From: a virus | Reading direction: 5' to 3' (one strand) | Length of the DNA: 64,000 nt | IMG/VR virus record: IMGVR_UViG_3300048597_000118 | Location: 37,170 to 101,169 of that record | Shown: piece after piece, positions 1,964-37,534 of the stretch | How the letters are laid out: every line of letters begins with the position of its first letter | Position numbering within the stretch: position 1 is the stretch's first letter | Notes under the pieces: generated by a model | Databases searched by the model: none | What the model saw: the letters and a program-made list of their open reading frames with translations, nothing else | What the model was told of the DNA's origin: nothing | Translations under genes and position numbers: made by a program

Positions 1964-4900
1964 TTAGAACTGGTCGACACGAGGTCCAGGCAGTGCATTA
2001 ATAGTTAGGGAAGAACGGAAGTCTAAAATGTCCGTAACCTTCAGATAATCTCCAGGGAAGATAGGACGAGCTTGAATCAAAATGTTGATGATACCCCGGC
2101 GGGCATCGTCTTCAGAGTTGTTTCGCGCATCACAAATGGTTGGCTGGTAAGCAGACAACATTTCATTCCGTACAAACTCAGCCAGCACAGCGTCACAAGC
2201 ACTTGCAATACGACTTAGTAACTGAGGGCTGATGTTCTGAGAGCGGTAGCTCAACAAAGACTTGTAGATGCGGTCACGTGCTTGGTCCCAAGAGTGGACT
2301 ACAGACACATGACGTAACAAGTTATTGGTGGTAGAGCTAATACCGTTCAAGAACTTAAACACATTCAATCCGGGGTCTAAGTAAAAGACTTCAGTGCCGG
2401 ACTGAGTGTAAGCTTCTAAGTTAGACGGAGTAGGATTGATAGAGCTATAAGTAAAGCCGATTACAGAACGTTCACCGTAGGTAGACGCGGGGCTCAAGTG
2501 AGGTCCACGGCTAGCACCTAGTCCGATGTATGCACCAACTACGGGCTCACTACGATAAGCAATACCGCTCATGCTCCGACCTTGAGCCATCCCTGCAATT
2601 TGGATGAACCGAGGAGAGTTAACTTGGGTACGCATGGTACCGGCAGAACGAGGAGTAACCGTAGGAGATAACTGGACTACCGCCCGACGGAAACCACCAG
2701 TAGAAGGTCCGCTAGAATCTACAATCTCTTTGAGCTTCTCAAAGACTTCTTTGTAGTCATTGTCGCCGTAGTAAATACCTACGACACCAATCCAAGTAAC
2801 GTCAATAGAGCGGACTAATTCTAACGCTTCTAAATAGCCGGCCTTACGGGCTTCAATAGCAGACGTTGCATCTCCAGCTGCCGAGAAGTTAGTTCCTTTA
2901 CGAAGGAACACATCTGAAATAGTAGAAGACCCTTGAGCTCCAAATCGAGTAAACCCAGTGGAGTAGGAATTGTCCTGAGCTTCTAGCGCAGGAGCTAAGC
3001 GTAGAGGTAGCTGAGTGTAAATGTCAGGTGTTAACCGTGCAGCACGCACTATAGGATTACTAGGCTCAATAGCAGGAATCAAGTAAACTCGAACCAAGTT
3101 AGAAGTTTCGGTCTCTACATAAACACCAGTGTCAGTGTTGACAGCTTTGTTATCCAGGTAGAAAGACTCTACTTTGGGTCCGCCTAAGCTTACTTCAGCA
3201 GAGGTATCTTCTACTTGTAAGTAAAACCGAGCACTGCCTTCGCTTACTTCATCTGGGATAATGGTCACGCGGATGTTATTACCATAATCACCAGGGCTTA
3301 AAGCTTGTATACGGACTAAAGGGCGCCCGTCTAAAGCGTAGAAGTCACGGTATGCAAAGGAGCCGCTGTCCCGTCCACCCGTATAAGCATAATACTTATC
3401 AGGACCATAGTTATCCTGAGTGTAAATGCCGTCTTTAGTTAGAGACATCAACACATCACGAGTTTGGTCTTGACTTTCTAAACTAATAAGAGCTCCAACG
3501 TATAACTCGTCAGAGAATGCGCTCTGAACTTCAGAGGGCATGTCAAACTCTACATAATTGGTGCTAGCTGCACTAATGGGGTAGTAAGTACCGTTAAAGG
3601 TTACGCCGTAGTCCTCGTAGTTGTTAATAACAACATTAGACACAGACTCGACCATGAACTTGTCATCGTCCATTGCTGAAAACACTAGCTCAGGTCCAGC
3701 AACATAACGAACTAAATTCCACAAGCACCGGTTAGATTCCAATCCAGTGATGCTGGGTCGCACTTGGAACATGTACGGCGTCATACCAATGACATTTTCT
3801 ACCGCACTAGTCATAGAAGAGAATGCCGGGTCAGCGTAAATGGCATACTCTAAGTCCCGCATAATGTTAGCCAGTGGAGTGCCTTTTGCATACGCTTCTG
3901 GGGTACCGGCTCGACCACCTACAACAACTTGAGTCCGCACAAAAGGTACGGTCCATTGCGTGCCCTGAGTTAAGTTCAGGCGACTATCATTAGGAAGTCC
4001 ATAAAGGATTTTAATGCCGACAGATTCCTGACCTAAGACAGTAGCAGTGGAATAAGATAAAGGCGCTACTAAGTATTTGAACTCGATAGCTTTATTGCCG
4101 TTACCTTCAGTTAACACATAGTAAGCGTCAGCACCGGTCAGGTTAGGCACTTTGAAGTAGTTGTAGCCATCCTGTTGTGCAGACAAGTTGGCGAAAGTAT
4201 CAGTCTGTACATATCCATAGGAAACTAAGATTTTACTCTTAGAAGGAAAATGTACACGGAAAGGTTTAGTTACAGCGGCGGTGTTGGGCGCAGTTAACAC
4301 AATGTAATCATTTACTTTGGTTTTTTCTGCGACGTTGCCTGCTACAGTAACGGTAACCAACCCAGTAGTGGCTACATAAGGAGTAGTAACGGAATCAACT
4401 ACAAAGGTTTCTTTAGAGTGACCAAAGGTTAATTTAGTTCCTACTACAATAGTTGAGCTAGTTAAACCTTTAATAGCAACCGTAGAAGTCGTGGCTCCAG
4501 GAGTAATTGAAGCAACTCGTGGTGCGATAGTAACCCTAGAGTCTTCCTCCACTGTGGAGCTTAAGTTGTTACCAAGTTCCAAAGTTACCGATGCATCGGT
4601 GTTAGCAGCGCTTTCAATTAGATATACAGACTCGTTAATTAACAATGCCGAGTCTTCTAAGATAGTCAGCTGATCAGCAGTAGGTTCCCAATCTGCTCCT
4701 AACGCACCAAAAGTGGCGTCAAAGGTAATCTCACGTAGTCCAGAAATGGAAGTTACAACACCGTTAACAGTGGTACTGGGGCTAAAATGACCAGTTACTA
4801 CGATGCCTTTTAGTCCAGCGTCTTCGTTAATGTAAAAGGGCTGTGAGGCAATAGTCAGTCCTTCTTGCTGCCCATTTTCGCTAGATAGTAGTGAGAAACC

Positions 4901-14069: not shown

Positions 14070-15539
14070 GTTCTTTTTGGGGTTGCCGGCGGCCGGCTTA
14101 GCTGGCTGTCGGTCTTGTTGTTGAGGCTTGACATTACCAGTAGGTCTACCAGGCTCTGCTTTCTTAACCGCTTCACCTGTGGGCTTTTGTAGTGGCTCAA
14201 TTAATATCTGTTTAATGAACTTAACGTCAGCAGAAGTTTGTTCACGCTCGCTAAGACCAGCCATTTGACGCACCATGGCCCAGTCCATACTATCCAATGG
14301 GTTAAGATAAGCCTTCTCAGTTAGACCAGTTACTACTTGCATAGTAGCTACCCGGTCTTCAGGTCGGTCACTATATTGATTAGCAAAAGTAGGCGGTATC
14401 TTAGCCGAAGCCCTATTAAAATTCCATTGCTGTACAGTCATTAGACACTTCTGTACAACATGGTTGATTAAAGCCCGCCGCTCATTATAAATGGTCTTAA
14501 AGTAAACCTCCATACGACGCTCACGAGCAGCCTCTAAGGAGTTAGTGTCCATAATCAGAAAGTATGGCACTATATGCCGGATAGACTCAGCATCTACAAA
14601 CCGGAGGGTGTTTAGAAACACATCACCAAAGTTGTCACTAGAAGGAATAGAACCAATTTCCGGCTTAAAGTCGTTACCAGCCTGAAGTTGCGGCAGTAGT
14701 ATATGCCGTAAGTCTTCTTGGTTAATTTCTAGCTGCTCTTGGATATACTCCAGAGTAGTCTTTGGTCTTTCATTACCAGTGGCTGGGTCTAATATCATCT
14801 CATCTCCTAAAGAAGTAGAGGGAGACCTAATCCAGGTAACACGTTTCCCTACGTCATTCATAGCGCTGACCATCATTTCGACCAGCACCTCTTTTAACCG
14901 GAACCACTTATACGAGGGCGCCACTAAAGAATGACCATAGTAATTCCCATACTCAGAGTTAGACGCCAGATAGATATGCTTCCACATCTGTAATTGACGT
15001 TCACCCCTAGGGTCTAAAGTATGATGTTGGAAGATGCCAGACTTATGACCGCTTAACGTCTTAGAGCCTTCAGTTAAGAGCCCATCTTTATCCGGGTAAA
15101 TAGTAATAGTGGTTGGATGATAAGTTAAAACATCTTTTAAGGTGAGCGCCCCAAAGGTTAAGTTATAGCAAACCTCAGATACAGAGAAGCCCGCCCAGTC
15201 CTTAGTAAACTGTATTTCCCGTAAAACTTGTTCCCATGCTTTTCCAGAGTGGTCTTCTAAGGCTAATAGACTATTACGGTGGAACTCTTGAATTTCTTCA
15301 TCTGGATGAACTGGAAGCCCAATAGACCCAACAATAGAGTTAACTCTTGTCTGTTCTGCTGAGTGAATGGTTAAGTCTTGTCGCACCATCTTTTCATAGG
15401 TACGGAGCTTAGCTTGTAGCGGTCGGTTTAATAATAGTTGGTTAAACTGGCCTTGTTGTTGTAGTTTGTACCGTGCGCTGCGTCTATCTGCGTAGCGTAT
15501 ATCACCGGCCGGGAACGGATTAGTAGGTTGAGTAGGCAC
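14052..15539 (-). CDS. Portal protein (Mu gp29/DUF935-like)
   Basis: 495 aa; YEKMVRQD..I, WAGFSVSEV, GNYYGHSL; first gene of the head operon. Confidence 0.88.
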   Translation of the reverse strand: MPTQPTNPFPAGDIRYADRRSARYKLQQQGQFNQLLLNRPLQAKLRTYEKMVRQDLTIHSAEQTRVNSIVGSIGLPVHPDEEIQEFHRNSLLALEDHSGKAWEQVLREIQFTKDWAGFSVSEVCYNLTFGALTLKDVLTYHPTTITIYPDKDGLLTEGSKTLSGHKSGIFQHHTLDPRGERQLQMWKHIYLASNSEYGNYYGHSLVAPSYKWFRLKEVLVEMMVSAMNDVGKRVTWIRSPSTSLGDEMILDPATGNERPKTTLEYIQEQLEINQEDLRHILLPQLQAGNDFKPEIGSIPSSDNFGDVFLNTLRFVDAESIRHIVPYFLIMDTNSLEAARERRMEVYFKTIYNERRALINHVVQKCLMTVQQWNFNRASAKIPPTFANQYSDRPEDRVATMQVVTGLTEKAYLNPLDSMDWAMVRQMAGLSEREQTSADVKFIKQILIEPLQKPTGEAVKKAEPGRPTGNVKPQQQDRQPAKPAAGNPKKNLKEGG

Positions 15540-15590
15540 AAGAATAGGAGTTTGTTTACTAAGCTCTACTGTTAATATTAGTTTATTGGC

Positions 15591-15618
15591 TAGCCCAGAC
15601 TAACGATAAGCTGGGCTA
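15591..15618. terminator. Hairpin upstream of portal
   Basis: TAGCCCAG...CTGGGCTA inverted repeat. Confidence 0.5.
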
Positions 15619-15672
15619 ACCTATAAATAGTAGTACCGAGTCTGTTAAGCTCCTTGCTAAGGACCACTTAAC

Positions 15673-15824
15673 TTGACATCCTCCACTTCCCTAAAGGGAA
15701 GGGATTCCTACGAAGCAAACAGATTTAACTGAATAGCTTTTCGGTGGGTTGACGCTTCACAGGATGCCGCTACCGAAGTAGTCTTACGCTTTCCTCCACG
15801 TCCGTTTTCAGTCTCCGAACGTCC
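15673..15824 (-). ncRNA. TnpB-type omegaRNA (reRNA) scaffold overlapping a residual tnpB C-terminal tail
   Basis: 15824-15708 translates as GRSETENGRGGKRKTTSVAASCEASTHRKAIQLNLFAS*, resembling cyanobacterial TnpB C-termini that overlap the omegaRNA; followed by the RE hairpin and TCAA. Confidence 0.7.
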
Positions 15825-16384
15825 TATGAACTTACAGATACAATATTTGACCCCTGACATCGACTTTTGTGGCGGGACCAACCGTTAATTGTACTCAAAG
15901 GAATATCTAAATTTCTTGATATATCACTTTGCGTAACGCCTTCGTTTAAGAGACTTAACACAGTAGTGATGGTGGAGTCTCTATATTTACATTTACCGTG
16001 TTTTTCCCCCGTTACATATTTAGCTCGACCATTCTTTAACTTATGGTCTGTGTTTGCTTGGGGCGTTACCCATTCCAGGTTAGAGACGCAGTTGTTTAAT
16101 GGGTTTGAGTCTATATGATTCACCTGTAAATTAGAGCTTATCGGTCTGCCGATAAACGTTGTGGCTACTAGCGTATGGACACATATATGCTTTTTGACAG
16201 CATTCTTACTTAAAGCTACGCAAGGATAACCTTTTCTAAGAGTAGGACTTAACTTTTTGCGTGGAGCATGTCTGTAAGAGCCTCCTTTAGCCTTAACCAT
16301 CTTGTCCGTAGCGTAAATTGACCCATCAGACCCGCACTCATAGAGTCCCTCATAACCTGCTATCGGTCTAAATTCTATTTCCAT
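15824..16384 (-). CDS. NUMOD4-HNH homing endonuclease with C-terminal HTH
   Basis: EFRPIAGYEGLYE (NUMOD4); VHTLVATTF...VNHIDSNPLNNCVSNLEWVT..N (HNH_3); GVTQSDISRNLDIPLSTI (HTH). Confidence 0.92.
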   Translation of the reverse strand: MEIEFRPIAGYEGLYECGSDGSIYATDKMVKAKGGSYRHAPRKKLSPTLRKGYPCVALSKNAVKKHICVHTLVATTFIGRPISSNLQVNHIDSNPLNNCVSNLEWVTPQANTDHKLKNGRAKYVTGEKHGKCKYRDSTITTVLSLLNEGVTQSDISRNLDIPLSTINGWSRHKSRCQGSNIVSVSS

Positions 16385-16444
16385 AATTAATAGTTTAAGT
16401 CGTGATTATGTTATTATAACAATCTGTACGTACATTGGCTACCC

Positions 16445-16582
16445 ATGGCAAAAGAAAGATTAAACCTGCGAATAGAAGTAGGGCGTTTAGATAAGTTAAG
16501 GAAGCTTGCGTCTAAGAAGAAAAAGACAATGACACAGATAATAGAAGATTGGCTTGATACTCTTGATATAGATAAAGATTGA
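16445..16582 (+). CDS. CopG/ribbon-helix-helix protein (45 aa, below the ORF track cutoff)
   Basis: MAKERLNLRIEVGRLDKLRKLASKKKKTMTQIIEDWLDTLDIDKD; RHH pattern, inside the IS remnant. Confidence 0.75.
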   Translation: MAKERLNLRIEVGRLDKLRKLASKKKKTMTQIIEDWLDTLDIDKD

Positions 16583-16781
16583 GTTTCCGCCCAAGTTGTC
16601 TGTATCGCAAATAGTAAATGCCCTCAAGGGTGTCTCTAGTCGTCGCTATGGACAAGCTAATTTACCAAAGCCATACGGTAAGGATGCCCTCTGGAGTCCG
16701 TCTTATTTTGCTTCTAGTGTTGGCGGCGCACCCATTAAAACCATTAGACTGTACATAGAAAACCAATTAAAGCCGTCCTAA
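16578..16781 (+). pseudogene. tnpA: IS200 transposase (Y1 HUH) C-terminal remnant
   Basis: IEFPPKLSVSQIVNALKGVSSRR...LWSPSYFASSVGGAP...YIENQ matches the TnpA C-terminus with the catalytic Tyr helix; the N-terminal HUH half is missing. Confidence 0.9.
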
Positions 16782-16829
16782 AGGACGGGGTTTTAAACCC
16801 ATTCTTTTGATAATTAGGATTTCTCCTCA

Positions 16830-17633
16830 ATGAATCGTCTACCAGAAACTATCACTATCAGCCGTGAAGACCTTCCCTCCGGCGAGTATGATGTGATCCT
16901 TAAATGCCCGTACTTTGGAGATTGGCGTAAAGCTCGTAAACTTTACCCCAACGATATGGACTCCCAAGGTCGTCGCAAAAGCCCTGGTTATGCCGCCGAA
17001 GAACTCCTGCTCTGTCAGCAGATTGTTGATGTTGTAGACAAAGATAATCGCTCTGCTATGGGTCGCCGCCCTAAAGATGTTATTGACCGTCTTAAGTTAT
17101 TCACTATCCCAGACCGTCAAGCTCTTCTAACCATCTTTTTGGAATTGTTCTGGGTAGGTGCAGACCAGGCTAAACAAGCCCGCGATTTAGCCAATGAATT
17201 CATGGTGACTGCTGCTCTTACTTACACTATCGAAGCAGATAAAATGCCCATGGCTGGGGTCAGCGTTACCTATAATGCTGTTAACACTGGTACTCAAATG
17301 GCGGCAGACCGCCGTTATATCGGAGTGCAAGAACAAGGTTGCACCCTAGAAGAACTTCTATTTGCTACTTGTGTGGCAGCAGTAGATGGTGACCCAGTAG
17401 AGCAACCTAAAGACAGTATCAGTCTGTTAGATGAATGGACTATCTCTGATGTTCAGTTTGCTAAGTTGGTCTTTGTTAACCAATTTACTTTAGATGAAGC
17501 CGGAGAAGACCGGGCAAAGGAAGCGGGAAAGCGCTACTTGGAAAAACTTGGTTTGAGCAAGCTCGCTTCAACGCCCGCACCCAAACCCAAGCAAACCTCC
17601 AAGCCGCCGGCCAACAATGTTCAAGAATTGTAA
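16830..17633 (+). CDS. Tail assembly chaperone (gpG-like, two repeated domains)
   Basis: Immediately upstream of the giant gene; internal repeat (EELLLCQQI...PKDVIDRL / EELLFATCV...PKDSISLL); contains an in-phase slippery heptamer. Confidence 0.8.
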   Translation: MNRLPETITISREDLPSGEYDVILKCPYFGDWRKARKLYPNDMDSQGRRKSPGYAAEELLLCQQIVDVVDKDNRSAMGRRPKDVIDRLKLFTIPDRQALLTIFLELFWVGADQAKQARDLANEFMVTAALTYTIEADKMPMAGVSVTYNAVNTGTQMAADRRYIGVQEQGCTLEELLFATCVAAVDGDPVEQPKDSISLLDEWTISDVQFAKLVFVNQFTLDEAGEDRAKEAGKRYLEKLGLSKLASTPAPKPKQTSKPPANNVQEL

Positions 17634-18194: not shown

Positions 18195-21100
18195 GTGTCA
18201 GATTTTACTTACACTTCAGACCCGGCTCTACAAAAACTTATAGAGCTTCTAAAAAACCAAGAAATAGTCCAGGCAGTTAAGGAGAAGCTTGCTGCTAGTG
18301 GACCGGCTATGACAGCCACTATCTTCTCAAGACAGTTAGCACAAGCCTTAAATGAAGTAGTAAGTGATAAAGGACTTCAAGCTGAATATAGTATCACAGT
18401 AGAGCTGGTAGACGCCTATTTAAAATCGGAGAACAGAGAAAGAGATGTTTTTCCAGAACAACAGGCACAATGGGCGCGGCTTAGATCCAACGTAGCTGGA
18501 CATTCTATAACCGCCGACTTTGTAGAAGATGTACACACTAAGCATTTAGACCCTTACAAAGCCATAAAGGACTTCTCAGATAAGTTCAAAGGCAATGTAG
18601 AGACTAAGGGGTTTGCTTCTAGCATCGGAGCCCGTGGACTAAACGTAGACCAAAGTTCTGAGCGGACGTTTACTTACTATGACGACAATGCCAGATTCCA
18701 GGGTAATAGACTAGCTGAGTCTATAGATAGTGACGGTAGGTTTAGTAGGCAACTAAAACTTACTTCTGATAGTTACGCTACCCCGCAAGGGTATATCAGT
18801 AGACCAGCTACCCAAGATTATTACAACCTATTTGCCGATAAAGAGCGGTCTGGTATGGGCTTTAGAGGCTCTATCTTCCAAGTTCAAGAGGCGGGCTTTA
18901 TGTCGGGTATAACACAGCGCACTGGCAGTACTGAGTTAGTCACCCAAAGATTATCTTCTGTACAAGTCATATCAGCTGCATATGACAAAGAGGAAGAAGC
19001 TTCCAGCCCTATGAACTTATATGGATCTAACGATGTCAGCATATATGCTTCTGAAGTCTTAGCCGAGCGTCACAAAAGACCATTAAAAATGATGGGCATA
19101 GAAATGCCCGGAGGGTCTGTACACGCTAAATTGGGTTACTGGTATAAAGAAGGTACAGCCGGCGATGTAAACGATGTGCAGTCTTTCTTCATCAGCTCTC
19201 AGAACTTAACCCATACTTTATCTCGGTCTAACACAGTAGAAGACATGCTGTTGATTAATAGACCGTCTGACGAAGCAGGGCTGTCTACTTTTAATTCTGT
19301 AGCTAAAGAATTAAAGATAGCCGCCGATGCTCTGATTAGTGTCGCCAGAGACCAAGCTCAGAATAATACTGCTATAACTAGCCTTTCTGATATATCAGCC
19401 TCTAGGAGCTTCTTCAGACGTTTTACAGACAATATAACGGCAGCAGCGGGTACAGAGGTTAACAAAGAAAACCGGACTATCTTCGCTAACCAAGAGATTA
19501 AAGGTCAGTTTAGCCGTATGTTTAAGGAAGCTGCTGAGTCTAAGTCTAACAAGCTTATCATTACACAACAGTACTTTGAGCAGTCCTTAATAGGCAGAGA
19601 AGGAGATTTTGGCTCAACATTACTATCTGACTCTGATGTTGGTTATTTACAAAGTTTGGCGTCTAGAGGCGGCATCAAAATTGGTGTGACCGGCTCTAGT
19701 ATGGGCGGCGACTCCCAAGGTCTTTTTAGTTTGTTAGATAAGTTCGAAGCTGCAAAACCTGGAAAGCTGACTGGGTCTCAGCTAAAGCGGTATAACCTGC
19801 TTAAAACATTAATTAGTGGTCAGCCTGGTCAGGAAAGTGCCTTCACCTTAATGCCGAGCCAATATCTACATAGTAAGTCTATGGCTATGTTTAGTGGCTC
19901 TGGAAGACTATTGGAGTACGCGTTGGGCTCTGCCAACTTCAGTGAAAAAGCTCTGGTGCCAGCGTCGAGGCAAGAGCCATCAGATGAATTTGGGTTAAAG
20001 ACTACAGACAACATAGAAGTAGCTGGTTTCTTTAGGACTAAAAACAATAGTCTGAGTCTGCTATCCAAAGCTGACCAACAGCGTATAAAAGACAATTACT
20101 TCTACGGCATAGGTAGATACCAAGAAGGAAAAGAGTCAGAGGAAGAGATAGACGACCCTAACGGTCGATTAATTAACAGGTATGGTCGTGATTTACGCCA
20201 CCGCTATCAAGGTGCCCAAGTACAGCAAAAAGGCAGCGCTAAATTCGTTAAGTCTGCCATAGAAATGATAGAAGGTATGGGCGGCAAAGAATATTCTGCT
20301 GAAGGGTCTTCAGATGCACTGTTCAGGTATAAAAAAGAATATATCCTCGACTCCCAGTCTGACTCTGGGTACAGATTAGTAGGGCTGAAATTAAACATAG
20401 CCCAGCCAATTTCAAGTGGCAAAGACTACTCTATTAGTCTAACCATAGGTTCAGAGTTCAAATCTATACAAACTGGTCGTGGTGGAGGGTATAAGACTGT
20501 AGAGTCGCCTATGGTCTACATCAATAAGACCCAGCGCTTTATGACTGGTGCAGTCTTTAAAAACGCCACGGATACTACCTTCCATTTCATGCGCTACAAC
20601 GAACTGGATGGAAAAATAGGTTTGGCGGCGCTCAAACCACAAGAAAGTTATGAAGCTAACTCTTTAGATGTGTTGGGTGGCTTCCTAACTACCATGCAAA
20701 CCAGCATGAATTACGAAGCTAAAGTCCGTGGTATTGCTTATACCTATGAAGCATTAGGCGCAGACATAATGAAAAAGTCCGCCGAGAGGGTAATTGCAGA
20801 AAAAGTAACTGCTTTATACCTATACTCTTCTGCTGGTGAAACACCTACAGAAACCCAAATAAGGACTGTACTCGACGCCAGACGACAAGGGCTAGGTGCT
20901 TTGTTGTCGTTGGTCCAAAAGAGTGGACGATTAGGCGACGTACTTCAAAATACACAATACGACTTCTCTGGCAATATCACTAAATCGGACATCATACCTA
21001 ATAACTGGGGTGACTCTTCCGCAGTCAGACGTGAAAGGAGAGTAGGTTTACAAAACATATTTAAAGATGTTATTCGCGACGCCAACTCTGCTAACACTCA

Positions 21101-24100
21101 AGACTTAGCAAAAAAACTAGTCAACAACTTTAATGCCGCCCTACAGAAATCCGTCGGACTTCTACCTGACGACATACGAGACTATACTTCCGGCTTCACT
21201 GGGCAATATAACGACATCATCATGCAGATATTTGCTGCCACTCCAGTAGGCATGCAGATTTATAAGGATGCTGTTAGCGCCGGTTATAGCGAATCTTACT
21301 CCAGACAAGTAGACGCTTATTCTCAACCACACACCGAAAACTATAGCCACGGTCAGTCCTTGCACTCTAAACCAGTGGTAGGTATCACTCCAGAGAATAT
21401 GGACCTATTCCGCTTAGTTTCCCCTATGTTAGGAGCTAACCCTGATGCTGTGGGCGGTAAAGTTGGTGGTTTAATCCTTAATCCTTATCCTTTAAGTCAT
21501 GGAGAACAGTTAGGTAATAGCACCGGCGGACAATATCTACGCACAGTAAGTAAGTCAGTAGGGCGTGCCCAGGTCCAACCATTTACACAACAAATAGGTG
21601 GCCTCACTAAGATTCAAGGCGGCGCCCCAGTCGTCTATAACATGCTTGGCGTGGCCAGCTCTATGCCCACACTCCAAGCTATAGACCGCCAAGGGTATAA
21701 GGAGAGGTCTGCCCAAGTCTTGTCAAAAATGGGACTCAAGGACGCGGAGGCAACTAACATAGTTAAGAGCTTAGAATCTCAAACCTTTGACCCTGTATTT
21801 GGTGGGAAAAGTAAAGAAGAAGACGAAGAAGCTAAAGAGTACGACCTGCTCTACTACTTCCCTTATGCCAAGACAGAGCAAATCATGCAACGGATGAAGA
21901 ACCTACTCTCCACCCGTCCTATGTTTGACGCTTCTAGGGAATTCATAGACTACTCTTATTCTCTAGGGCTTTTAGGTCGTTATTCTAATTACCAAATGGA
22001 AGGGGGTGATAAGAAAGACTTCTTAACCTCTCCATCTGACCTGATCGGTGGTCGGCTCTTAGATAGCATGCCAATCCAACAATTTGAATCCATAGTAGCC
22101 AGAACTGAGGCTAAATACACAGACAAGCAAAGAGAAGCAGCAACTGAATATAAAAAGATACTTAGTGACCCAAAGGCTAGTCGTGAACAAAAGATAGCTG
22201 CCGGTCGAGCATTACAGGAAATAGACCAGCCTATAATGCTCCAACTGGCTAAAGACAATGCTATTGATGTCTATGCAGTTGGCAAAGGGTATATGGGTAG
22301 TGAGCGCCCACGACTTAATATCCTTGTGGCCGGAGCTACTCAATTAGCAGACTACGGGATATATAACACTAGTTACCGTAAAGACACCTATAAATATGGG
22401 ATGAAGTTGTTAAAACCTCACCCAGTTCAAACGAATATCACTTTGAGTGGGGGGCAGATAGGTCCGGCGTCTTTACAGAGCGCAGTTCAGAAATATCTAC
22501 AACCTGGTACTGTCTTCATCGCTAGAGATACCACCATACAACACACGCAAGTAATTCAAGCCTTTAATGAGCAACTTAAGGATGCTTTAGAGGTTTCAGT
22601 TAAAGAAGTAGGTGTCACTAAAGGTCTGGAGGCAGTGAAGTTTAGTGTAGACACCAGTAGTAGTCTTACTAGACAAAGCATTAGGCAGAGTATAGTAACG
22701 GCTTTAGGGAGCGCAAATATAGACAACACTGAGATAGATGCTATATACAAAGGTGCCGTAGCTAAACTAAGGGGCGAAAACCAAGGTATTCGTGTAATAA
22801 CTGACTACAAGACCGGGCAAGTTGGGTATGTTTTGGGTCGTGGGGCTTACCAAAGCGGACGCCAAGTAGGGGAAGTATCTTCACTAAATACCACTAACGT
22901 CAAAATAGGGGATTTAGACCCTGGGGACGCCGCATTTAAGATGTGGGGTTTTATGTCTTATGACGGCGGACATGCTCAACCTCTACAAATTAGAGTGCCT
23001 GCTATTACTGGGGATGAACTTAACTCCATAAGTGTTTTAGGTGAGACTACCGTTATAGCTATGACAGGTAATACTGCCACTATAGATACCCAGTTCTACA
23101 ACGTAGAAGATTTTATGAGTGGTATGCGGGCCGGCTCTATCATTCCTAAAGGACCTATGAAGGGCGGTAAGAGAGAGTTATTCGAAGCCGCTGTTGGTCT
23201 AATAGGTCAAGAGTCTATTAACTTACTTCCGTCTACGGTAAAAGGACCTGGCGAGACTAGTATCAAAGCCGAAGATGTTTACTCTATGATCAGCCCTTCT
23301 CAAGTCAAAGCCTTTAACTTTGAGATTGGTTTGATGATGCTTGCCGATAAACAAGAGAGTGGCATCTATAAACGTCTGACTGACGCTGATACGGGCGGCG
23401 TTAACGTGGCCATGGCGCTGTCTATGCTATTCCTTAACTCCAAAGCAGATGATATTGGAGGTAAAGATAATCTGGCTATGTTATATGACCGTCTCAGTAA
23501 CACTTTATCTAGTGAGCAAAGAGATGGTAAAAGTGCTTATGGTAAGCAATATGCCGCCGCCCTACGGGCTAAAAAGTCTCTATTAAAGTTAGGGCAGACA
23601 GACTCAACTACAGCCTTTACTTCTTTTAGTAGTGCGCCAGGCTCTGCATCTTTAGCTATGTTCAGTGCTTTGGCGGGCTTTGGTAAATGGACTAGTGACT
23701 CTGAAAGTATAGAATCAGCACTTCTAAATCAAATCATTACAGCCTTAGGTACTGATAAGAAAGAGGCTGAAGCTGCTCAAAAGAGACTATCTGACGCAGC
23801 TAAAGGTCTGATGGACTATGCCTTTGCTGAAAAGTCTCGGGGTGGTGTCATTATAGAAGACTTTGAGACTAAGCCTTTAGGGCTATTGTCGTTCTTAACT
23901 AAAGCTAGTGCTGATATTTATAGAGACTTAGATAAAGAACAGTTGAGGAAAACCCGCGCCTTGGGCGAAGTTATTCTCAGCAGCAAAAGCCTATTTACCT
24001 CGCCAGAGAGTCTAATAGTTGATGTTGATGGTTTAGATGAGACTTATAAAAAATCCAGGGATTCCGTTCTGGTAGCCCTGAGTAATCTATTCTCTGTAGG

Positions 24101-27100
24101 AGAATCTACTTCTCGTAGGAAGCAAATACAAGTAGAGATGCAGCGCCGTAAGGCTTACTTGTTAGCAGGAGAAATCCATAAGATATCAGGGGGTGATATA
24201 GATGCGGCACAGCGAATACTTAATCCGACCCTAAGCGTAGACGAATTCTTAACTAGAGCAGGTATAGCACAGCAACGTAGGATTCTACCTGAAGGTATGA
24301 AGCCCCGCACAGGGTTAGAATCCCGCTTTGCTACTGTAGACCTCTGGAGCTCCATGCAGAGTATGTATGCTAAATCAGGGTCGGAACCAAGTCTAAAACA
24401 GCTGGGTGTCAGAGAGTTTAATCCTTACTTAGAAGCCATCAATCAATTAGTAGGCAAAGGTCAAACTCAAAGGTCTGTCTTAGATGACCTTATTGCTTCT
24501 ACAGGAAGTACCGCTACAGATTCTCAAAAGACGTTGCGGTCTAATTTCGAAGACACCCTCCGCAAATTAGTTGTTCGACGTAGTGCTATGGGTCCACAAC
24601 TCCTTGAAGTGCAGGAAAGATTGGAGAAACTGGGTATTACCGACTTTTCTGCTAATTCTGAATTTGGCAAGCTACTAGGTTCTTATCAAGAAGGAATAGT
24701 GGAGTCTATAGACACCTATGAGGTATCTAAGGTATCTACAGTAGACGCATTGATGGGCTTTTATAGTTCTACAGAAGCCTACGCCGGTTTAGCTGATGAG
24801 ACTATACAGAAGGCTATGCTGACACAAGCTCAACGTATGGGATACTCTTTGCCTAGTCAAAAACTAATCAGAAGCATACTAGATAAAATCAGTAAGAGCA
24901 CCCAAGATTCTGACATTACAGAAGGTGAGTACCGGGCGTTAAAAGAAGTGGAGTTGGTGTTTGAAGGTATTACGGCGGCTATTCAGCAGGCCCGCACCAT
25001 TACTCTACCAATGGAGACTAACTTCAGCAAAATTAGCACGCCGGCGGGTAGTAAAGACTCTACGGCCCTAGAAGGTCATCTTAGTCGTTCTATGACTGAG
25101 CGGCAGCTAAAACAGTATACTTATGCGCTGGAAGAGTTTGCTGATTTAACCTCCGTACAAAACGCTCTGATGAGTCTTACTAAGGCTTACTACGGCTCTA
25201 TACCAAACGCTAAACAGCGACAGTCTTTAATCAGTATGGACTTGTCTAACATCAATTCTTGGCGTTGGAATGACTTAGAACGTAATAAACAGGGCAAATT
25301 GGTTAGGTCTCAAGGTGAGGCTAAAGGTCAAACACAGGACGCTCACTCTAAACAGTTCCTATGGGATTACTTGGCTAATTACAACAGTCTTTATCGTAAT
25401 GCACTACCTGGAGAAGACAGTGAAGTCGGCTTCTCTCGCATAAGCATAGACAATTTTATTAATACGGGTAGGGCTCAAACAGATGTTATGAGCACAATGG
25501 AGCGTATTAATATCATCGCCTACGGTCCAGCTGGTAAGTCTGATGACCCTGCTGAAGAATTACAACGCCGTGCCACTAATTCAGCCACGTTTACTTTTGA
25601 TGAGCTCAGTGAAGGTATTTCACGTAAACGCACTACGGATAAACTCGTTAAATTGGCTTCTTCTGGTTTAGACCAGTATCTAGCATATATAGACAGTACC
25701 GATTTACCTGAATCAGATAAAAAGGCAGTAAGTGAGATACTAGCTAAAGAAAGAGGGCTATATAAGTCTCAAATAAACTACTTTGTCGCAGAGAGTATTA
25801 AAGGGAAAAGGTCTAAAGATGAAATTCTTGGCGATGATATATTCAGACAAGGTATAGATGACGCAGAAGTGCAGCGTATTAAACCATTTATTCCTGGAGA
25901 TAGAGGGATATTAGGTTACTTCAACTTCTTAGAAGAGTCACTAACGCCATTGAAGGAAAGCGAATCTAAGACTTGGCTGTCTACTGTTTTAAGTGGTGAT
26001 TCTGCAAGAGCTAACGCCAAACTGCGTCAAGACGAGATAGAACGACTGGCGGCGCCTGGTGGTAACATACACCAGAAAATACAACACGCCCAGGCACAAG
26101 ACCAAGGCGCTGCGTATTTAGAAGGAATGAAAAGTATATATAAGACCCTTCAAGGTATGCCTACAGGCAGGAAGTCTGTTAGCACACGAGGCAGACGTAT
26201 AAATGCACTAAAACGAAGCATTGAAAAAACACAGTTTATATCGCTCTACTCCTATGAAATAGCTTCTACTGAAGGTGGGCTACTAAGACTACAGCACCGC
26301 ACTAACATGCGCGGCGAGAAGTACAGTGAGACCGGTTTAATCTTAGGGTTAGATGTCTTAGAGAAGATGTCTCTACTATTCCAAAACAGCAGTCACGAGG
26401 CCTTGGTAGCTCAACAGGATTTGGTGACTAAGTTAGCTGCTGCTAAAAACATCATTGACCGCGTAGAAACTGGTTTAGTTAAAGGTTATCTAGGCGAAGA
26501 GGTAGATGTTAAGGCCACTGGTGTCACTCAAGAAGAATGGCAGCAGTTACGCGACCTTCAACAGGCCATGATGGCGTCCAAAATAACCGCTGTCAGTATT
26601 TTGCAGAATGAGAACAGTATTAGACAAGCCACTGGCAACCGTCTTAATATGATGGGCTCTTCTTTCATTGCCATGAATAGCTTCTTAGTAGGCGCTACTG
26701 AAGTGGCATTAGGGGCACGGTTTGATTCCGCTGCTGGTGTAACTACAGCCGGTGGGTATATGCGGTTTATGGCTAACGTAGCGCCGCGCACCAGAGATAT
26801 GGATAAATACCTTTTGGTAGACCCAGACCAACGTAAATTCCTCATTGGGCATTACAAAGAAGAGCATGACCTACAAAAACAAATAGCTGCAGCTGAAGAA
26901 ATAGGCGCTGCAGATAAAGTCCAAGCGTTGACTAATGAACTTCGTAGGTGGCAAGACTTACTCAGTATGGACCCTGAAAATCAGGTTACATCTCTAAACG
27001 AGAAGTTATTATCTATAGATGAGCAGATTGCACGGCAGAAAAATACAGTCGAATTTAAAAGCTTAGTTGACCCTGCTTCAAAGCGTGATGCAGAAGAGCG

Positions 27101-30100
27101 CCTAAATGCATTACAGAAAAAAAGAGGCATGATTAGTGATACTGCGTCAGCTATTACTAAGAGAGTGGGGAGTTATGTAGCACCTATACAAAAGACTAAA
27201 ATAAGCGAATCCCAGCTTAGCACTTTCGAAGAACTATATGGTCATCTAAAAACTATAGAGGCTCACGGTGAAAGTCAGGCTACCTTTGGTGGGTCTGAAG
27301 ATGAGAGTAAAGATAAGTTATTATCTATGCTTTCTAGACTAGAAAGCCTTATTGCTGGAGCAGAGTCTGATGAAGGTATGGATATAGCTTCTTATAGACT
27401 ATTTAAGTCAGAAGATATATTTTCGTATGTAGGCAGAGGGCAAAACGCACTTAAGAGTATTGTTTCCTCTGTTGTAGATATAACCAGCTATGAAGGCTCT
27501 AATAGTGACCAGCCTCTAGTAACGACAAAACAGAGAAGTGATGCGGTTAAGCAAACCACCGACAACATAATAAAAGAATTTTCTGATATAGACCTAAGCA
27601 TCAAACAACAATCTATGGGTCAAGACGCTACTAAGACAGCTAGAGTGTCTCAGGTCAATAAGGTAGCTGAAGCCGCCAAGATGAAAGACCTTTACTCTGA
27701 CCTATCTAAAGTCAAGGAGTCTAAACAGTATGACCGTAAAACCCTCAGTAAAGTGCTTCAAGTTCTTCGTTATAGCGGCGACCAAATCACAGATGGTGGG
27801 CTTACTGTTACAGACAGTGTTATCTCAACTATATTCTCCAGTTTTGACAGGCTAAACAAAGGCGAGTCATTAGATATCGACACTTACAGACTTTTTAATT
27901 TAGATGGTGGAGACCATAGGAAAGCCTTTGATGGATTCTTAGGTAAGATACTTACCATGTCCGAACAAGGTACTTTTACGGCTGATGAAGCTAACCAGTT
28001 ACTAGATTCAGAAGATAAAAACCACAAAAAGGCATTCAAAGACTTTTTAGATAAAGTACTAACTAAAACGAAAAAAGACCCGTCTCTAGCCGGCGATGTT
28101 TATAAGTTATTTGAAGTAGAAGGGGAAAAATATAGGAATATCTATGACCAAGGAGTTTATAACAGTTTTCTAAGTAAACTCTTAACAAAGGCTAAAAAGG
28201 AGTCCTTTGCCGCAGACCGTGCTTATCAAAAACTAGGTAAATGGCATGACTTACTCTCTGATTACGCTTTGGCCTACGCAGAAGGTGAAGGAGACTCAGG
28301 TAAGGCCCGCACTTTTACCCAAGCTGAACTCTTAGAAGCTTATGAGTCTAGCGGTAAGTCCCGCACTCTTATCGAACTAGAACTTATAACAGGTCAGACG
28401 GTAACTAGCCAAAATCGTAACGAAGTGATGGCTAAAGTGGACTCCCACTTCCTACGTTCTGATATCCTGGCTAACCGTCAAGGTATGCCTTCTTATGCCG
28501 CAGCTGGTCCAAGAGGTGTCGCCGCTGCCATTAGCTCCCTACAAGGCGTCACTATGGAAGAAATGCGTAAACGAGGTCAACTCGTTAATAGTCTTTTCAC
28601 ACCAGATGAAAGCGCCGACAATACTTTAATGATGATAAGCGCCTTCGGGTTCCAATTCATGGGATTAGGTGACTACGACGGTGACTCTTATCAAGCTGCT
28701 TTAAGCAGCGTAACTAAAGCACAAAGTACCATAGCGCGAACTAATGAAGAGTTAACTACCTTAGAAGAAAGGCTTAATCGTCTTAAAAAAGATAGGAAAC
28801 AGCAAGAAGAACGCAGAGCAATAGTAAAAACTAGCGCCGACACTGAAGAGCGTAGCAGAGTAAATAAAAGAATAGAGGAGTTAAACCAGCAGATTAGGAT
28901 TACTGAAGCCAAGCGCAGACAAGTTAAAGACTCTAATTACAGGGCTACTAGAGACCTACGGGATATTAACCGTGAGGCACGCGAGACTCAGTCTGTTAAA
29001 TCAGGGAAGGCTTATAAAGGATTGCGTTCTTATGTGTCTTCCTATCTAGCTTTACCTTCTTACCTATTTGGGGATTCAGTAACTGGTTCTGATGACACGT
29101 CTATCTATGAGTTTGGCCTTCAAGACGACGAGTTGGCGGGCACAGTTAAGCAATACAGAGACACAATTAGTGGGTATAGTGACCGGTCTACGGACTCTAC
29201 TAACTCTGTTGGTGCTTTTGCTTGGTTGAAGACAGCAAAAGGCGGTGCTGTAGCCATTGATAAGTCTGGAAAACTAGACTTTGACGTTGATGGTATACGT
29301 AAAAGCCGTGGTTCTACTGCTAGCACTATGACCATTAATAAGATGGTCGCTGCCGCCGAACAGTGGAATCAAGCCCTTATCAAAGAAAAAATACACGAGA
29401 AGATAGCGAAGAATAGCGCTTTAGATGAGGCCAAAGCTCGGCAGTCAGTAATAGAAGATATACAAAAGATGTCAGTAGATAGTTATATGAAGGAGGTTAC
29501 TGAGTTTCAGAACAGGTCTGAGGCTATATTCATGTCTATGTCTACATCAGGCAAGATATTTACTAATGTAGCTGGGAGCCAGATTAGTCCTGCGGACCTT
29601 AACTCTATCCAGTCAATTATGGGAACGACTGGTGGCGGGCTACTAGGTAAAGTCTATAACACTGTAGTGCCCAGCGCCGCCACTCAATTAACAGACTCGC
29701 TGATGAACCGTATGATGAGCAATGACTCCGTGCGGGCAGATTTCTTACGGTCAGTTAGTAACCTACAAGAGTCAGCAAGTGGATATACCTCTGTTTCTGT
29801 CTTGGGTAATACTTTAGGAAAAATAGCTGAAAGCTTAGGATCTATGACCAATGTTGGCGGCGTGCCTTGGGAACTCAGCATGGCAGATAAGGAAGCCAAG
29901 GCTTCTACTGCTTATAGGTTTATGCTGACGACTCAACAGTACCTCCGAGATGCTGCTTTGAAACCTAAAGGTAAAGTTGGTCTGGTAGAGATGGCGCGTA
30001 AATTCCGCCTAAGTGCTAGCGCCATTAGTCAAATAACAGACTTAGGTATACAAGGCATAGACGAAGATGTTCTGAGTAAGACTGTAGGCTATGACAGTCT

Positions 30101-33100
30101 GCTAAAACTTCAACCACAAGCAGCAGAAGAGGAAGTATCTAGACAGTTCCTAGATATAATCAGCCAGGACTTTTTAGGTGCCAAAGCAGGTGAAGTACTT
30201 AGTTATAGCTATGACAAGTCAAAGGCTAATACTAGCGCAGATGTGGACGCAGACATGACAGCTTTCGCCATGTTGAAGTTATTGACTGATTACACTGGTA
30301 GCCGCGCTATGACTGCATCAGAGATGATGGAGAAAGGGCATTACAGCGCTTCTCTTAAGGCTTCTAGGGATGAACTGTCTTCTAAACTAACTACTCATAG
30401 TCAGCAGGTTACAGAGTACTTAGAAAGTAAAAAAGGCACCGACAATACTCGCATAGAAGCCGCTAAACAAGAACTGAGAAACGTCGGCGTAAAACCTGAA
30501 ATGGTGGACCGTGTAGTAAAAGGCCAGAGCAATAGTTGGTACATAGACGATGACGCTTTTGTCCAAAATACCATAGCTAACCTCATAGGCAAGTTTCAGT
30601 CTCAGTTCTTAGGCGGCAACTCTGTGGCAGATGACTTTAAGTCTGTAGATCCACTCTCTACTGAGCGCACTCTCTACACCCACGGTTTAGAAGTAGAGGT
30701 TGACGAGTCTGGTGATAGTCCGACCTACAAAATAGTAAGGAGAGAAGACTCTGATAAAACTATCCGTCGGAATGCTGCATATCAAATGCAGGATAAAGTA
30801 GACGCTTATAATCGCAAGTTTAATCTGTCTGGTCAAGATGCTTTACAAGTAACCGACTTAGTAAAGACAGATGATAAAGGCAATTTTATAGACTGGGATT
30901 TAGAAACGGCATCTAGCAAGATTAAAGAAAGGGCTAAACAAGAAGCCCTCCGTAAACTAAATAAAACTTTAGGGCTTGAACACTCAGCAGAATTACAACT
31001 CTCTGCTGAAGAAGCTACTAGACTATCTTCTGGTGATATAGGCATGGCGCAAGCTGACTTACGCACTAGACTTGATGGGGTCAAAGGCGTGTCTAATCTA
31101 GATAGACTTGCCACTGAAACCGAGTCTAATGCTAAGTCTTACCTTGAAATTCTAGGTAATAAACAGTCTGAATCAAAAGCAGGTAAAGCGGCGCTCAAAC
31201 AGATAAATGAGGGTAGAGCTACTGAAGATGCATTTACTTCAGTAGACCAAGCGCGAGCCTGGTCTACTAAAGTCTTAGAAAATGAAAACAGATTACTAGC
31301 CGACTTAAATTCAATAAATGAGGCTAAGTCTGCCACTCAACAAGAGTTACAGACTATAGAGTCTCGCCGTAAAAGAGTTCAACGAGTAGATTCTACAGTT
31401 AATCAGTCCGCAGACGCATTTAAATCTTGGCAGACTACTTCAGATACCATTGATGCTCAAGTAGACTCTTTCGAGGCTACTATGCGGCAGAACATGGAGA
31501 ATAGAGTCTCTGAGTTGACCTCTAACCGTGATGCCATTGAGACGGAGGCCGAAGGTCGCAATATGAGCGTCGATGAAGTCGCTGCCACCACGTTTAGAAC
31601 TCTACAAGAGATAACTACCCGTAATCAGGCTGACGACCTTATGGATGTCTTAGTGAAGACTAAAAAGCTAAACCAAGCGGTCCAAGGAGTAGTTACTGAA
31701 GGTCAATCAGAACAGTTTGCCGCTGTTAAAGACTCTCTTATCTCAGCCAACAACTTAACTTCATTGACCTTATTAGAGTCTATGGAAATATTGGGAGGTG
31801 AGGTTACAGCCCACGCCCAAGGTATAGACTCAGCCAAGCTCAATCAGGCATCTTTAGCCCAAGCGATGTCTACCGGTCTAACTAATGTGTTAGAAGCTGT
31901 CAGGACTTATTCTGACAGTCTTAGTGATGGTAGTCAGTTTGATAACAAATTGGGCGGCGCTATCATGTCTTTCCTGTCTATGGGTGGCGTACTTCCTGAT
32001 GAAATAAGCCAGATAGTAAACCAGAATGTAGCTCAACAGGTAGGCACGACAAAAGACTATGTTGAGCAGATGCAAACAGAACAAGGTAGAACAGCCTTGG
32101 CTAATAAGCTAGCTAAGTACGGCGGTAGTGACCTAGATATCACTACTGCTGAAGGTCAAGTAGAAGCAGCTAACCGTATAGTTAGAGGACAAACAGATGA
32201 GCTTCAAACTGGCGTCCTTAAAAACTTGATGCGGGCCGGCGTTATAGATGCTATTGCTTCTGGTTCTGGCTTTACTGGACATATGTCTAAGTGGTCTGAC
32301 TTGATGCAAGACACTATTGAGTTAGGCAATATGGACCCAGCAAATTTATCAGAGTCACAGCAAAGTATTTTAGACACTGCTCGCCAGATGCCTACACCTG
32401 AATATCAATGGGGTCAGCGCCTAGAGGCCAGTCAAGAAATGGTAGATAGGTTTAACTCTGGCTTAGAAAAGCGCGGTGTAAAACAACGGATCAATGCCAA
32501 CCAACTCTCTCGGTTAGCAAACAGCGATAATACTATGACTGTTCTAGAAGAACTAGGTCTAAATAAAGATACTAAAGTGGCTACACAGTTAGGCGCTCAA
32601 CTAGAAGAGTTTAGGTCTGAGCAGCGGACAGAATCAGTCTTACAAACACCTGACACTGTACGTAATCCAGGAGTAGCGCCCTCGATGTCTACTCCTGCCG
32701 TCGAAGACTTATCTGGCGGTAATACCGGCTTGGGTTCTAGTAGACCCCAAGATATGCAAATGTTATCTATAGATAAAGAGCAGGAAATGGTACGACAAAC
32801 TCTTGCAGATGTACATCGTACAAGACATGTAAGAGAAAAAGAAGCGGAGCAAAGTAAAGCAGAGTCTGCTTTAAGACGTAACTACGGTTTCACTGAAGCG
32901 TTAAGTATCTTAGCTATACCCGCCTTGTTTGCAGCTATGCAAGGTGATATTCCGGTCACAGAACAAGTGGGCGGTTTAGTTCAGGATGTTGTGACCTCTA
33001 CTCTGACCTCAGGTACCTTTGAGCAGTCCGCTACGTCTTTAATGTTGGCTGATGGTAAGTCAGAAGAAGAGCGGGCGGCCAGACTGGCTCAAGTACGTAG

Positions 33101-37160: not shown

Positions 37161-37534
37161 GGATTTCTAAATTGTAGAGACAGCTTTAGGAGATAGTTGG
37201 CGTCAGTAGCTTTAGCCTTATTTAACGTGACAAATACGTCTAAGAAATCTTTGCTTAGTGTTGGTGCAGCCTTAACGTAAGAAATGACGTTATTCAGAGA
37301 ATAAGAATGTTTCCATGGCCGGCGAGCTCTTACAGCTTCGTAAGCGTCGCCTATACGAGTTTCATCTTTAGATAACCATACGTGTGTAGGTGCCAAGCGG
37401 ACATGTCGTAGTACCCAGACGTAGTCCTTCGTAGCCAATTCATAGAGGCCTTGAACTTCCGATATGTTAACCATGGTAAAAGAATAGAATGGGGCTTTGC
37501 TTTCAGTTTGGAATATACATAATATTCCTCCCAC
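37148..37534 (-). CDS. Hypothetical protein
   Basis: 128-aa ORF in a minus-strand operon. Confidence 0.5.
   Translation of the reverse strand: MGGILCIFQTESKAPFYSFTMVNISEVQGLYELATKDYVWVLRHVRLAPTHVWLSKDETRIGDAYEAVRARRPWKHSYSLNNVISYVKAAPTLSKDFLDVFVTLNKAKATDANYLLKLSLQFRNPCRE

Follow-up and report, generated by a model that had tools for sequence, protein, structure and literature searches.

TnpB is now seen as a homing endonuclease that is guided by RNA and holds IS605 elements at their sites. Here, we describe a 1137-bp element in which the gene of an I-HmuI-type HNH homing endonuclease occupies the place of tnpB between the two ends of such an insertion sequence (IS). It lies in a stretch of 64,000 nucleotides (positions 37,170 to 101,169, hereafter the window, to which coordinates refer unless another contig is named) of the IMG/VR virus record IMGVR_UViG_3300048597_000118, which comprises 101,169 bases and has a completeness of about 68% (CheckV). 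Like elements of the IS608/ISDra2 type, represented here by a cyanobacterial family (loci L006 and L028), it is inserted 3' of TTAT without duplication, carries subterminal hairpins at both ends, has a right end with TCAA after GAAT, and possesses a tnpB tail doubling as omegaRNA, in which the loop of stem 1 forms a pseudoknot with the last scaffold bases as in ISDra2. It differs from them in keeping only 67 tnpA and 38 tnpB C-terminal codons, in carrying two unrelated genes and in having a broken stem 1.

Three further kinds of element invite comparison. Palindrome-associated transposable elements (PATEs; 10.1101/2023.03.14.532601), of which the loci L200 and L241 are natural examples, are also non-autonomous, keep their ends and carry an orphan omegaRNA that would need TnpB in trans; PATEs are protein-less and have a full scaffold, whereas the present element carries two intact open reading frames (ORFs), one for the HNH protein and one for a probable ribbon-helix-helix (RHH) protein, lacks the first half-stem and is not a PATE. 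Free-standing phage HNH genes (I-HmuI of SPO1, PDB 1U3E; intronless homing of the T4 Seg/Mob type) share with it the NUMOD4, HNH and C-terminal helix-turn-helix (HTH) domains, the location in a phage and the presence or absence between close relatives, but here the gene lies inside transposon ends and not between conserved phage genes or in an intron. IStrons, which join a group I intron to IS605 (PMC4227781, 10.1101/2023.11.20.567912), are likewise chimeras that combine an IS605 shell with another selfish element, and their omegaRNA region also overlaps that partner. In the present element, unlike an IStron, there is no intron (no Rfam match); a protein-coding homing cassette is the partner, and tnpB is missing. 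No description of a homing endonuclease inside IS605 ends was found in the literature searched. Judged by its sequence, the element can be classified as a non-autonomous IS200/IS605 derivative with a homing-endonuclease cargo.

We consider it probable that the locus represents an IS605 shell, young and non-autonomous, in which a homing cassette has taken the place of the core, with the HNH enzyme acting by protein recognition and the RNA being a relic. A cyanobacterial IS608-like (IS200/IS605) element would have inserted 3' of TTAT in a cyanophage, between a 267-aa gene and the portal gene, and its interior would recently have been replaced by a two-gene cassette encoding a small RHH protein and a free-standing I-HmuI-type HNH protein. 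Of the IS, this would leave the two ends that TnpA can recognise, a nonfunctional piece of tnpA and the tail of tnpB, which doubles as omegaRNA. The HNH protein would be an ordinary selfish homing endonuclease with protein-guided cutting, while what is left of the omegaRNA would be a relic of recent origin that takes no part in HNH action and is probably transcribed solely within the HNH mRNA, as its 3' untranslated end. A host TnpA acting in trans might still mobilise the shell, whose two ends are intact.

Insertion site, boundaries and parent family

The element sits between the 267-aa gene (plus strand, 16830-17633, function unassigned) and a Mu-type portal gene (minus strand, 15539-14052). 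One related phage contig, L005, with a portal protein 95% identical to that of the window, was found, and its flanks align with the window on both sides, with 105 bases in L005 opposite 1228 in the window. At the left junction, GAGGAGAAATCCTAATTAT is common to both and is followed by GTTAATTGGTACC in L005 and by CAAAAGAATGGG in the window, where the shared sequence resumes at GTTAAGTGGTCC only past ...GGAGGATGTCAA, the right junction. With the junctions marked by slashes, the empty site in L005 reads TTAT/GTTAAT and the occupied site in the window TTAT/element/GTTAAG. Since the element is absent from L005, in which TTAT/GTTAAT is intact, its boundaries are proved and it constitutes a single insertion unit. 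The minus-strand stretch 16809-15673, which spans 1137 bp and includes both ends, is a single precise IS200/IS605-type insertion 3' of TTAT, ending in TCAA, without target duplication; the site-specific insertion 3' of a short motif, the lack of a duplication and the scarless empty site are all as in members of that family. A megablast search of GenBank phages gave no match.

Two other explanations of the locus were dismissed by the same comparison. An HNH gene native to the phage and flanked by two separate IS fragments is ruled out by the empty site, which shows one insertion unit. A packaging-associated HNH enzyme, suggested by the adjoining portal gene, is ruled out because L005 has no HNH gene at this site and the enzyme is of the homing type.

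The target motif TTAT (target-adjacent motif, TAM; 16810-16813, minus strand) lies directly 5' of the left end and is defined by the empty site of L005 and by the TTAT/C junctions of the closest intact relatives. The left end (16760-16809, minus strand), delimited by the family left-end alignment, contains the hairpin CCGTCC-TTTA-GGACGG (CCGTCCTTTAGGACGG; 16788-16773), preceded by AAAA at 16794-16791, and is 76-87% identical to the closest intact cyanobacterial copies (L006, L007, L032) and 66-79% identical to others. Both ends carry subterminal imperfect hairpins conserved with the family, and that of the right end (15703-15683) shows compensatory changes across 47 relatives. All right ends of the family close GAATC-hairpin-GAG(G/T)ATGTCAA; that of the element, GAATC-hairpin-GAGGATGTCAA, fits this pattern, as the left end fits with TTAT/C.

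A scan of the genome collection with the tnpA-remnant ORF returned 80 loci, nearly all of them cyanobacterial, with the best match in a Synechocystis metagenome-assembled genome (L006, 92% identity); about 57 of these loci hold an intact element with divergent tnpA and tnpB. Compared with these intact relatives, the window element lacks the first (5') half of tnpA, tnpB up to about codon 361 and the divergent promoter region in between, while it has kept the left end, tnpA from the IEFPPK codons onward (16578-16781) and the last 38 tnpB codons. The parts lost and kept, like the insertion and its boundaries, are seen directly in these comparisons. The tnpA remnant (16578-16781, plus strand; Y1_Tnp) consists of 67 codons and a stop, is 92% identical to the TnpA of L006 at the amino acid level and has lost the HUH motif and everything upstream of it; within it, the ORF 16596-16781 covers the C-terminal half of the Pfam profile Y1_Tnp (positions 63-121 of 121, E 7e-14). 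With the HUH region deleted, there is no complete Y1 (HUH) transposase and the element is therefore non-autonomous. Nor is there a TnpB, only its 38 C-terminal codons, which read GRSETENGRGGKRKTTSVAAS...NLFAS-stop in the window versus GHPETLNGRGGKRKSTSVVAP...SLFG-stop in L006. The whole 101-kb record contains no tnpB (PF01385, PF07282) and no second tnpA.

A preliminary description of this DNA had listed the TTAT motif, the left-end hairpin, the tnpA remnant, the RHH and HNH genes, the tnpB tail with its omegaRNA, the right-end hairpin and TCAA, and all of them are present at, or a few bases from, the places it gave them. Its view that an IS605-family element carries an HNH gene in the place of tnpB gains support from the roughly 57 intact relatives. 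A tnpB elsewhere in the phage, for which it had suggested looking, did not turn up in the 101-kb record.

In the closest relatives the left junction is TTAT/C at many independent sites, and in a sister subfamily it is TTGAC/C, with matching base changes just 5' of the left-end hairpin. The loci L006-L085 comprise two target subfamilies, one with TTAT and ...TTTAAAA before the left-end hairpin, the other with TTGAC and ...GATACAAG. This covariation of target motif and left end agrees with what the DNA-guide rule known for IS608 would lead one to expect.

Outside the bacterial genomes, a 91% match to the left-end hairpin region of the element was observed in the Microcystis phage Mic1 (L284, MN013189; about 2996-3285, record 23578-23622), where two small paralogous genes are separated by about 290 nt of unannotated non-coding sequence. 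The left end of the same IS family thus occurs in an isolated cyanophage. On the other side of the insertion, beyond the 267-aa gene, a 5173-aa ORF (18195-33716, plus strand; ORF list only) begins about 560 bases downstream of that gene.

The inserted cassette and its junctions

Two genes fill positions 16577-15824 in place of the IS core. The larger (15824-16384, minus strand) is intact and encodes a 186-aa NUMOD4-HNH-HTH protein of the I-HmuI type, as judged by Pfam, PDB and PHROG matches. Pfam detects HNH_3 (7e-10) and NUMOD4 (2e-6), residues 4-135 align to the homing endonuclease I-HmuI (PDB 1U3E, E 2e-9), and the protein matches phrog_59, 'HNH endonuclease', at 5e-39. Its residues H90, N102 and N111 are invariant among 20 homologs. 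NUMOD4, HNH_3 with its His and Asn residues and a C-terminal HTH are found in the same arrangement as in I-HmuI-like proteins, the HTH matches being weak and below the Pfam cut-offs. The closest homolog, P0002, with 69% identity, is encoded on a JGI contig of 1818 bp and was the sole close homolog found; no close relatives were present in viral contigs, and the metagenome scan returned distant relatives only.

The second gene (16445-16582, plus strand) encodes the 45-aa probable RHH protein and its stop codon TGA overlaps the first retained tnpA codons. The assignment is based on weak profile matches, namely Pfam DUF6364/CopG below cut-off and Arc/CopG-like clusters in a protein atlas at 0.90-0.91, and a word-indexed search of a library of 5.8 billion proteins returned no homologs. 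Upstream of the HNH gene, promoter-site prediction yields the promoter-like site TAGCCA-17-TATAAT (TG-extended; 16413-16441, minus strand), which we treat as a lead only, as the count of such sites is not above that in shuffled controls. In the spacer of this predicted promoter, between the divergent RHH and HNH genes, we observed a perfect 10-bp palindrome, TGTACGTACA (16434-16425, minus strand), a candidate operator for the RHH protein. An Rfam scan of 15000-17500 revealed no intron family, even at E values up to 10, and nothing at gathering score; a weak HgcC match (14.6 bits, E 2.8) over the right-end hairpin is likewise a lead only.

The ends of both cassette genes coincide with the junctions: the TGA of the RHH gene runs into retained tnpA codons, and in the HNH stop codon TAG the final G is already part of the alignment to tnpB. 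Homology to the intact relatives resumes at IEF in tnpA, right after H-x-H-A-L, and 7-8 codons past NAAINI in tnpB. Homing endonucleases typically target the codons of conserved catalytic motifs, and the junctions adjoin the most conserved coding motifs of the IS, the HUH motif of tnpA and the last RuvC motif of tnpB (D..NAA.NI). This position, together with the way in which both cassette genes abut the retained IS sequence, would fit an HNH enzyme that targets conserved IS605 sequence, the cassette spreading by gene conversion into intact IS copies as a parasite of a parasite. The 3' half of tnpA with the left end, and the omegaRNA with the right end, would then be homology arms only. We regard this as a possible, though rather unlikely, origin of the chimera: no second copy was found among the loci examined, and about 1.35 kb has been replaced where a simple insertion would be expected, which is unusual for homing.

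The preliminary description had also proposed that the HNH protein took over homing into the empty site; it would then have replaced TnpB in function and would cut the element-free allele at or near TTAT/GTTAAGTGG during co-infection, after which repair would copy the shell into sibling phages. Free-standing HNH genes of phages do drive biased inheritance (review PMC13565253), the HNH gene is intact and has a plausible promoter, and at exactly this site the window phage carries the element while a close relative does not. That distribution is explained equally well by TnpA transposition into TTAT, though, and L005, the sole empty allele seen, is strongly diverged right past the junction. We consider this explanation unlikely. 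The probable reading of the cassette is still that of an ordinary homing gene in an IS shell, and the state of the RNA left in that shell bears on it further.

The truncated omegaRNA module

The RNA module (15673-15823, minus strand) was delimited with a covariance model and by alignment to the TnpB tail of L006. It comprises the tnpB tail (last 38 codons and stop, 15823-15708), which is an omegaRNA scaffold without the 5' strand of stem 1, followed by the right-end hairpin (15703-15683) and TCAA (15676-15673). Directly 3' of TCAA lies the would-be guide flank GTTAAGTGGTCCTTAGCAAG (15653-15672, minus strand), named by analogy with ISDra2 and ISGst, in which the guide is positioned 3' of the terminal element bases (PMC10097598; 10.1101/2023.03.14.532601). 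The position of the module, from the 3' end of tnpB through the right-end boundary and on into a guide, is that of an omegaRNA. No second target of the would-be guide was found within the window.

The structure of the family RNA was derived from an alignment of the tnpB tails and right ends of 47 intact relatives. When the window was included, RNAalifold predicted 24 pairs, 21 of them with compensatory changes. In the alignment without the window, and after a 5' stem and a pseudoknot had been added by hand, 92% of cells were paired, compared with 32-44% in slid controls, and double changes occurred in 26 of 34 pairs. The pseudoknot forms between the stem-1 loop and the bases that directly precede TCAA (alignment A4, columns 28-31 with 211-214), and one of its pairs switches between C-G (35 sequences), A-U (9) and U-A (2) with a single exception. 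A matching layout is known from ISDra2, whose pseudoknot links nucleotides -5 to -3 with the loop of stem 1 and whose minimal scaffold measures 116 nt (PMC10097598). In the tails of intact relatives we also observed G-C to C-G swaps in stem 1 that change the encoded amino acid (Arg/Cys), so that RNA pairing overrides the protein sequence there.

A covariance model (R1) built from the intact copies, with the window left out, finds the window copy at 15848-15673 with 80.2 bits and an E value of 4e-20. This match, the only one in the window, stops precisely with TCAA; for intact members of the same long subgroup, the scores are 82-103 bits. The scaffold is nevertheless incomplete. All six 5'-strand positions of stem 1, a stem that is 90% paired and shows compensatory changes in the intact copies, are HNH coding sequence and unpaired in the window. 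The copy keeps the pseudoknot loop GACG (15823-15820) and all later helices, except for one A·C mismatch (alignment A3, columns 67/103). No substitute for the lost strand was found upstream, and in the folded ensemble the orphaned 3' strand of stem 1 tends to mispair with later helices. The minimum-free-energy fold of the window RNA with its guide is not significant (z = -1.75) and differs from the consensus fold, and we therefore relied on covariation instead.

Homology to intact tnpB tails begins at GGAC and overlaps the HNH stop codon TAG by its last G, exactly the one-base overlap that had been noted before. The junction had been placed right at the start of the scaffold and taken as non-random; it falls in fact in the loop of the family's first conserved stem. 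It does lie within about 10 nt of the scaffold start, but it truncates the scaffold. In the same way, the claim that the omegaRNA is retained holds for the sequence and pairing, which match those of intact members, and fails for the 5' strand of stem 1, which is lost.

Whether such good preservation calls for selection can be judged from the tnpA fragment. Compared with L006, the 67 retained tnpA codons show a proportion of synonymous differences (pS) of 0.44 and of nonsynonymous differences (pN) of 0.026, and hence a pN/pS of 0.06, like two intact genes, even though these codons are unable to make a transposase. The replacement of the core thus appears to be recent. Since the tnpA fragment shows no drift from the time it was cut, function need not be invoked to explain why the RNA is equally well preserved. 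Several points weigh against regarding the RNA as a mere relic. The tnpB-side junction leaves the pseudoknot loop untouched and lies at most about 10 nt from where the minimal scaffold begins, which for a random breakpoint would be a coincidence of about 1 in 50, noticed post hoc. The RNA remnant scores like the intact subgroup (80 versus 82-103 bits), and both cassette genes stop exactly at the junctions, which is tidier than expected of an accident. Moreover, the phage record in which tnpB is absent has a completeness of only about 68%. Cyanobacteria abound in matching TnpBs.

Protein-less loci of the same RNA family were observed in two cyanophage contigs of IMG/VR. At L200 (6551-6743), a left end, TTTTTGAC/TAAAAATCTGGGATACAAGCCCCGTC, is fused straight to a full omegaRNA scaffold of 134.5 bits, and at L241 (4703-4834), an orphan scaffold of 121 bits lies beside an intein-bearing terminase gene. 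Both keep the full length of R1 (model positions 1-133), stem 1 included. On the same phage record but outside the window, R1 gives a weak omegaRNA-like match of 23 bits at G000:C1:28744-28888 on the minus strand (L286, 1501-1645) in an intergenic gap of about 310 nt, with a AAACGGGACG...GTAAGACC core and, about 150 nt upstream, a left-end-like hairpin, CCCACGCCG...CGGCGGTGGG. This stretch is a candidate for a protein-less IS605 derivative belonging to a different subfamily.

Protein-less IS605 derivatives with omegaRNAs that need TnpB in trans have been described (Meers 2023 preprint, 10.1101/2023.03.14.532601), and the preliminary description had applied this idea to the element. A host TnpB would load the orphan omegaRNA and cut TTAT-GTTAAGTGGTCCTTAG in phages without the element, by which the element would be retained or spread, or competitors harmed. 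The protein-less derivatives in cyanophage contigs (L200, 134 bits; L241, 121 bits), a host phylum rich in matching TnpBs, and the pseudoknot, helices 2-5, right end and correct TAM kept by the window copy are all consistent with this. The idea is thus a known one for protein-less derivatives, but it meets a damaged RNA here and no tnpB in the phage record. The lost 5' strand belongs to stem 1, which in ISDra2 is part of the minimal scaffold and contacts the RuvC domain (PMC10097598), its orphaned 3' strand tends to mispair, and natural minimal elements keep the stem. The site in L005 differs from the guide at 5 of 16 positions, two of which (6 and 11) fall within the critical positions 1-12, so that it would not be cut. 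As recency already accounts for the conservation, we judge a role of this RNA with a host TnpB to be quite improbable. Still more doubtful is a drive with two nucleases, in which the omegaRNA at the 3' end of the HNH transcript would hijack host TnpB against phages with an unoccupied TTAT-GTTAAGTGGTCC, while the HNH protein would add protein-guided homing. If it were true, the phage would weaponise a host transposon nuclease by supplying the guide alone.

Recurrence among related loci and meaning of the chimera

A search with R1 beside relatives of the HNH gene (at most 47% identity) found no omegaRNA at any of 172 loci (80 metagenome, 80 viral and 12 cyanobacterial), and neither tnpA nor tnpB adjoins the HNH relatives at the 160 metagenome and viral loci. 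These results bear on the proposal, also made earlier, that the HNH protein uses the omegaRNA as a guide or cofactor. The only point in its favour is physical adjacency, the RNA module beginning at the HNH stop codon. The protein looks like an ordinary I-HmuI-like enzyme, having its own DNA-binding modules and aligning over residues 4-135 to the protein-only I-HmuI, and none of the 172 loci of its relatives has an omegaRNA nearby. In addition, it is through its WED and RuvC domains that TnpB recognises the omegaRNA fold (PMC10097598), and the HNH protein has neither. We give such a partnership hardly any credence.

Starting from the IS side, the right-end pattern was found at no fewer than about 195 loci in viral contigs, most of them with a TnpB of 350-500 aa and, among the matches listed, about 40 with orphan ends. 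No NUMOD4-HNH gene adjoins a right end among the roughly 195 viral loci listed; the other IS605 ends flanking NUMOD4-HNH genes for which the preliminary description had suggested a search were absent from these as well as from the 172 HNH loci. A second copy of the chimera was found neither in the 80 genome IS loci, nor in the roughly 195 viral loci listed, nor in 401 cyanobacterial genomes, nor in the 160 loci of HNH relatives. Within the data covered, the exact chimera is unique. At one further IMG/VR viral locus, L443 (8345-9523), a weak match to an orphan right end and omegaRNA (19 bits) is preceded, at a distance of about 400 nt, by an ORF of 202 aa that gives a weak PF01844 HNH match.

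A single, apparently young copy is by itself no proof of function. Its value is that of a precisely mapped example, for which the empty site, the parent family and the junctions are known. A protein-guided homing endonuclease in the slot of TnpB within intact transposon ends represents a natural exchange between two ways of accomplishing one selfish task; alternatively, it may represent a homing endonuclease parasitising a transposon. If such hybrids were recurrent, they would amount to a class of composite phage mobile elements that has not been described so far, and would supply phage genomes with orphan guide RNAs.

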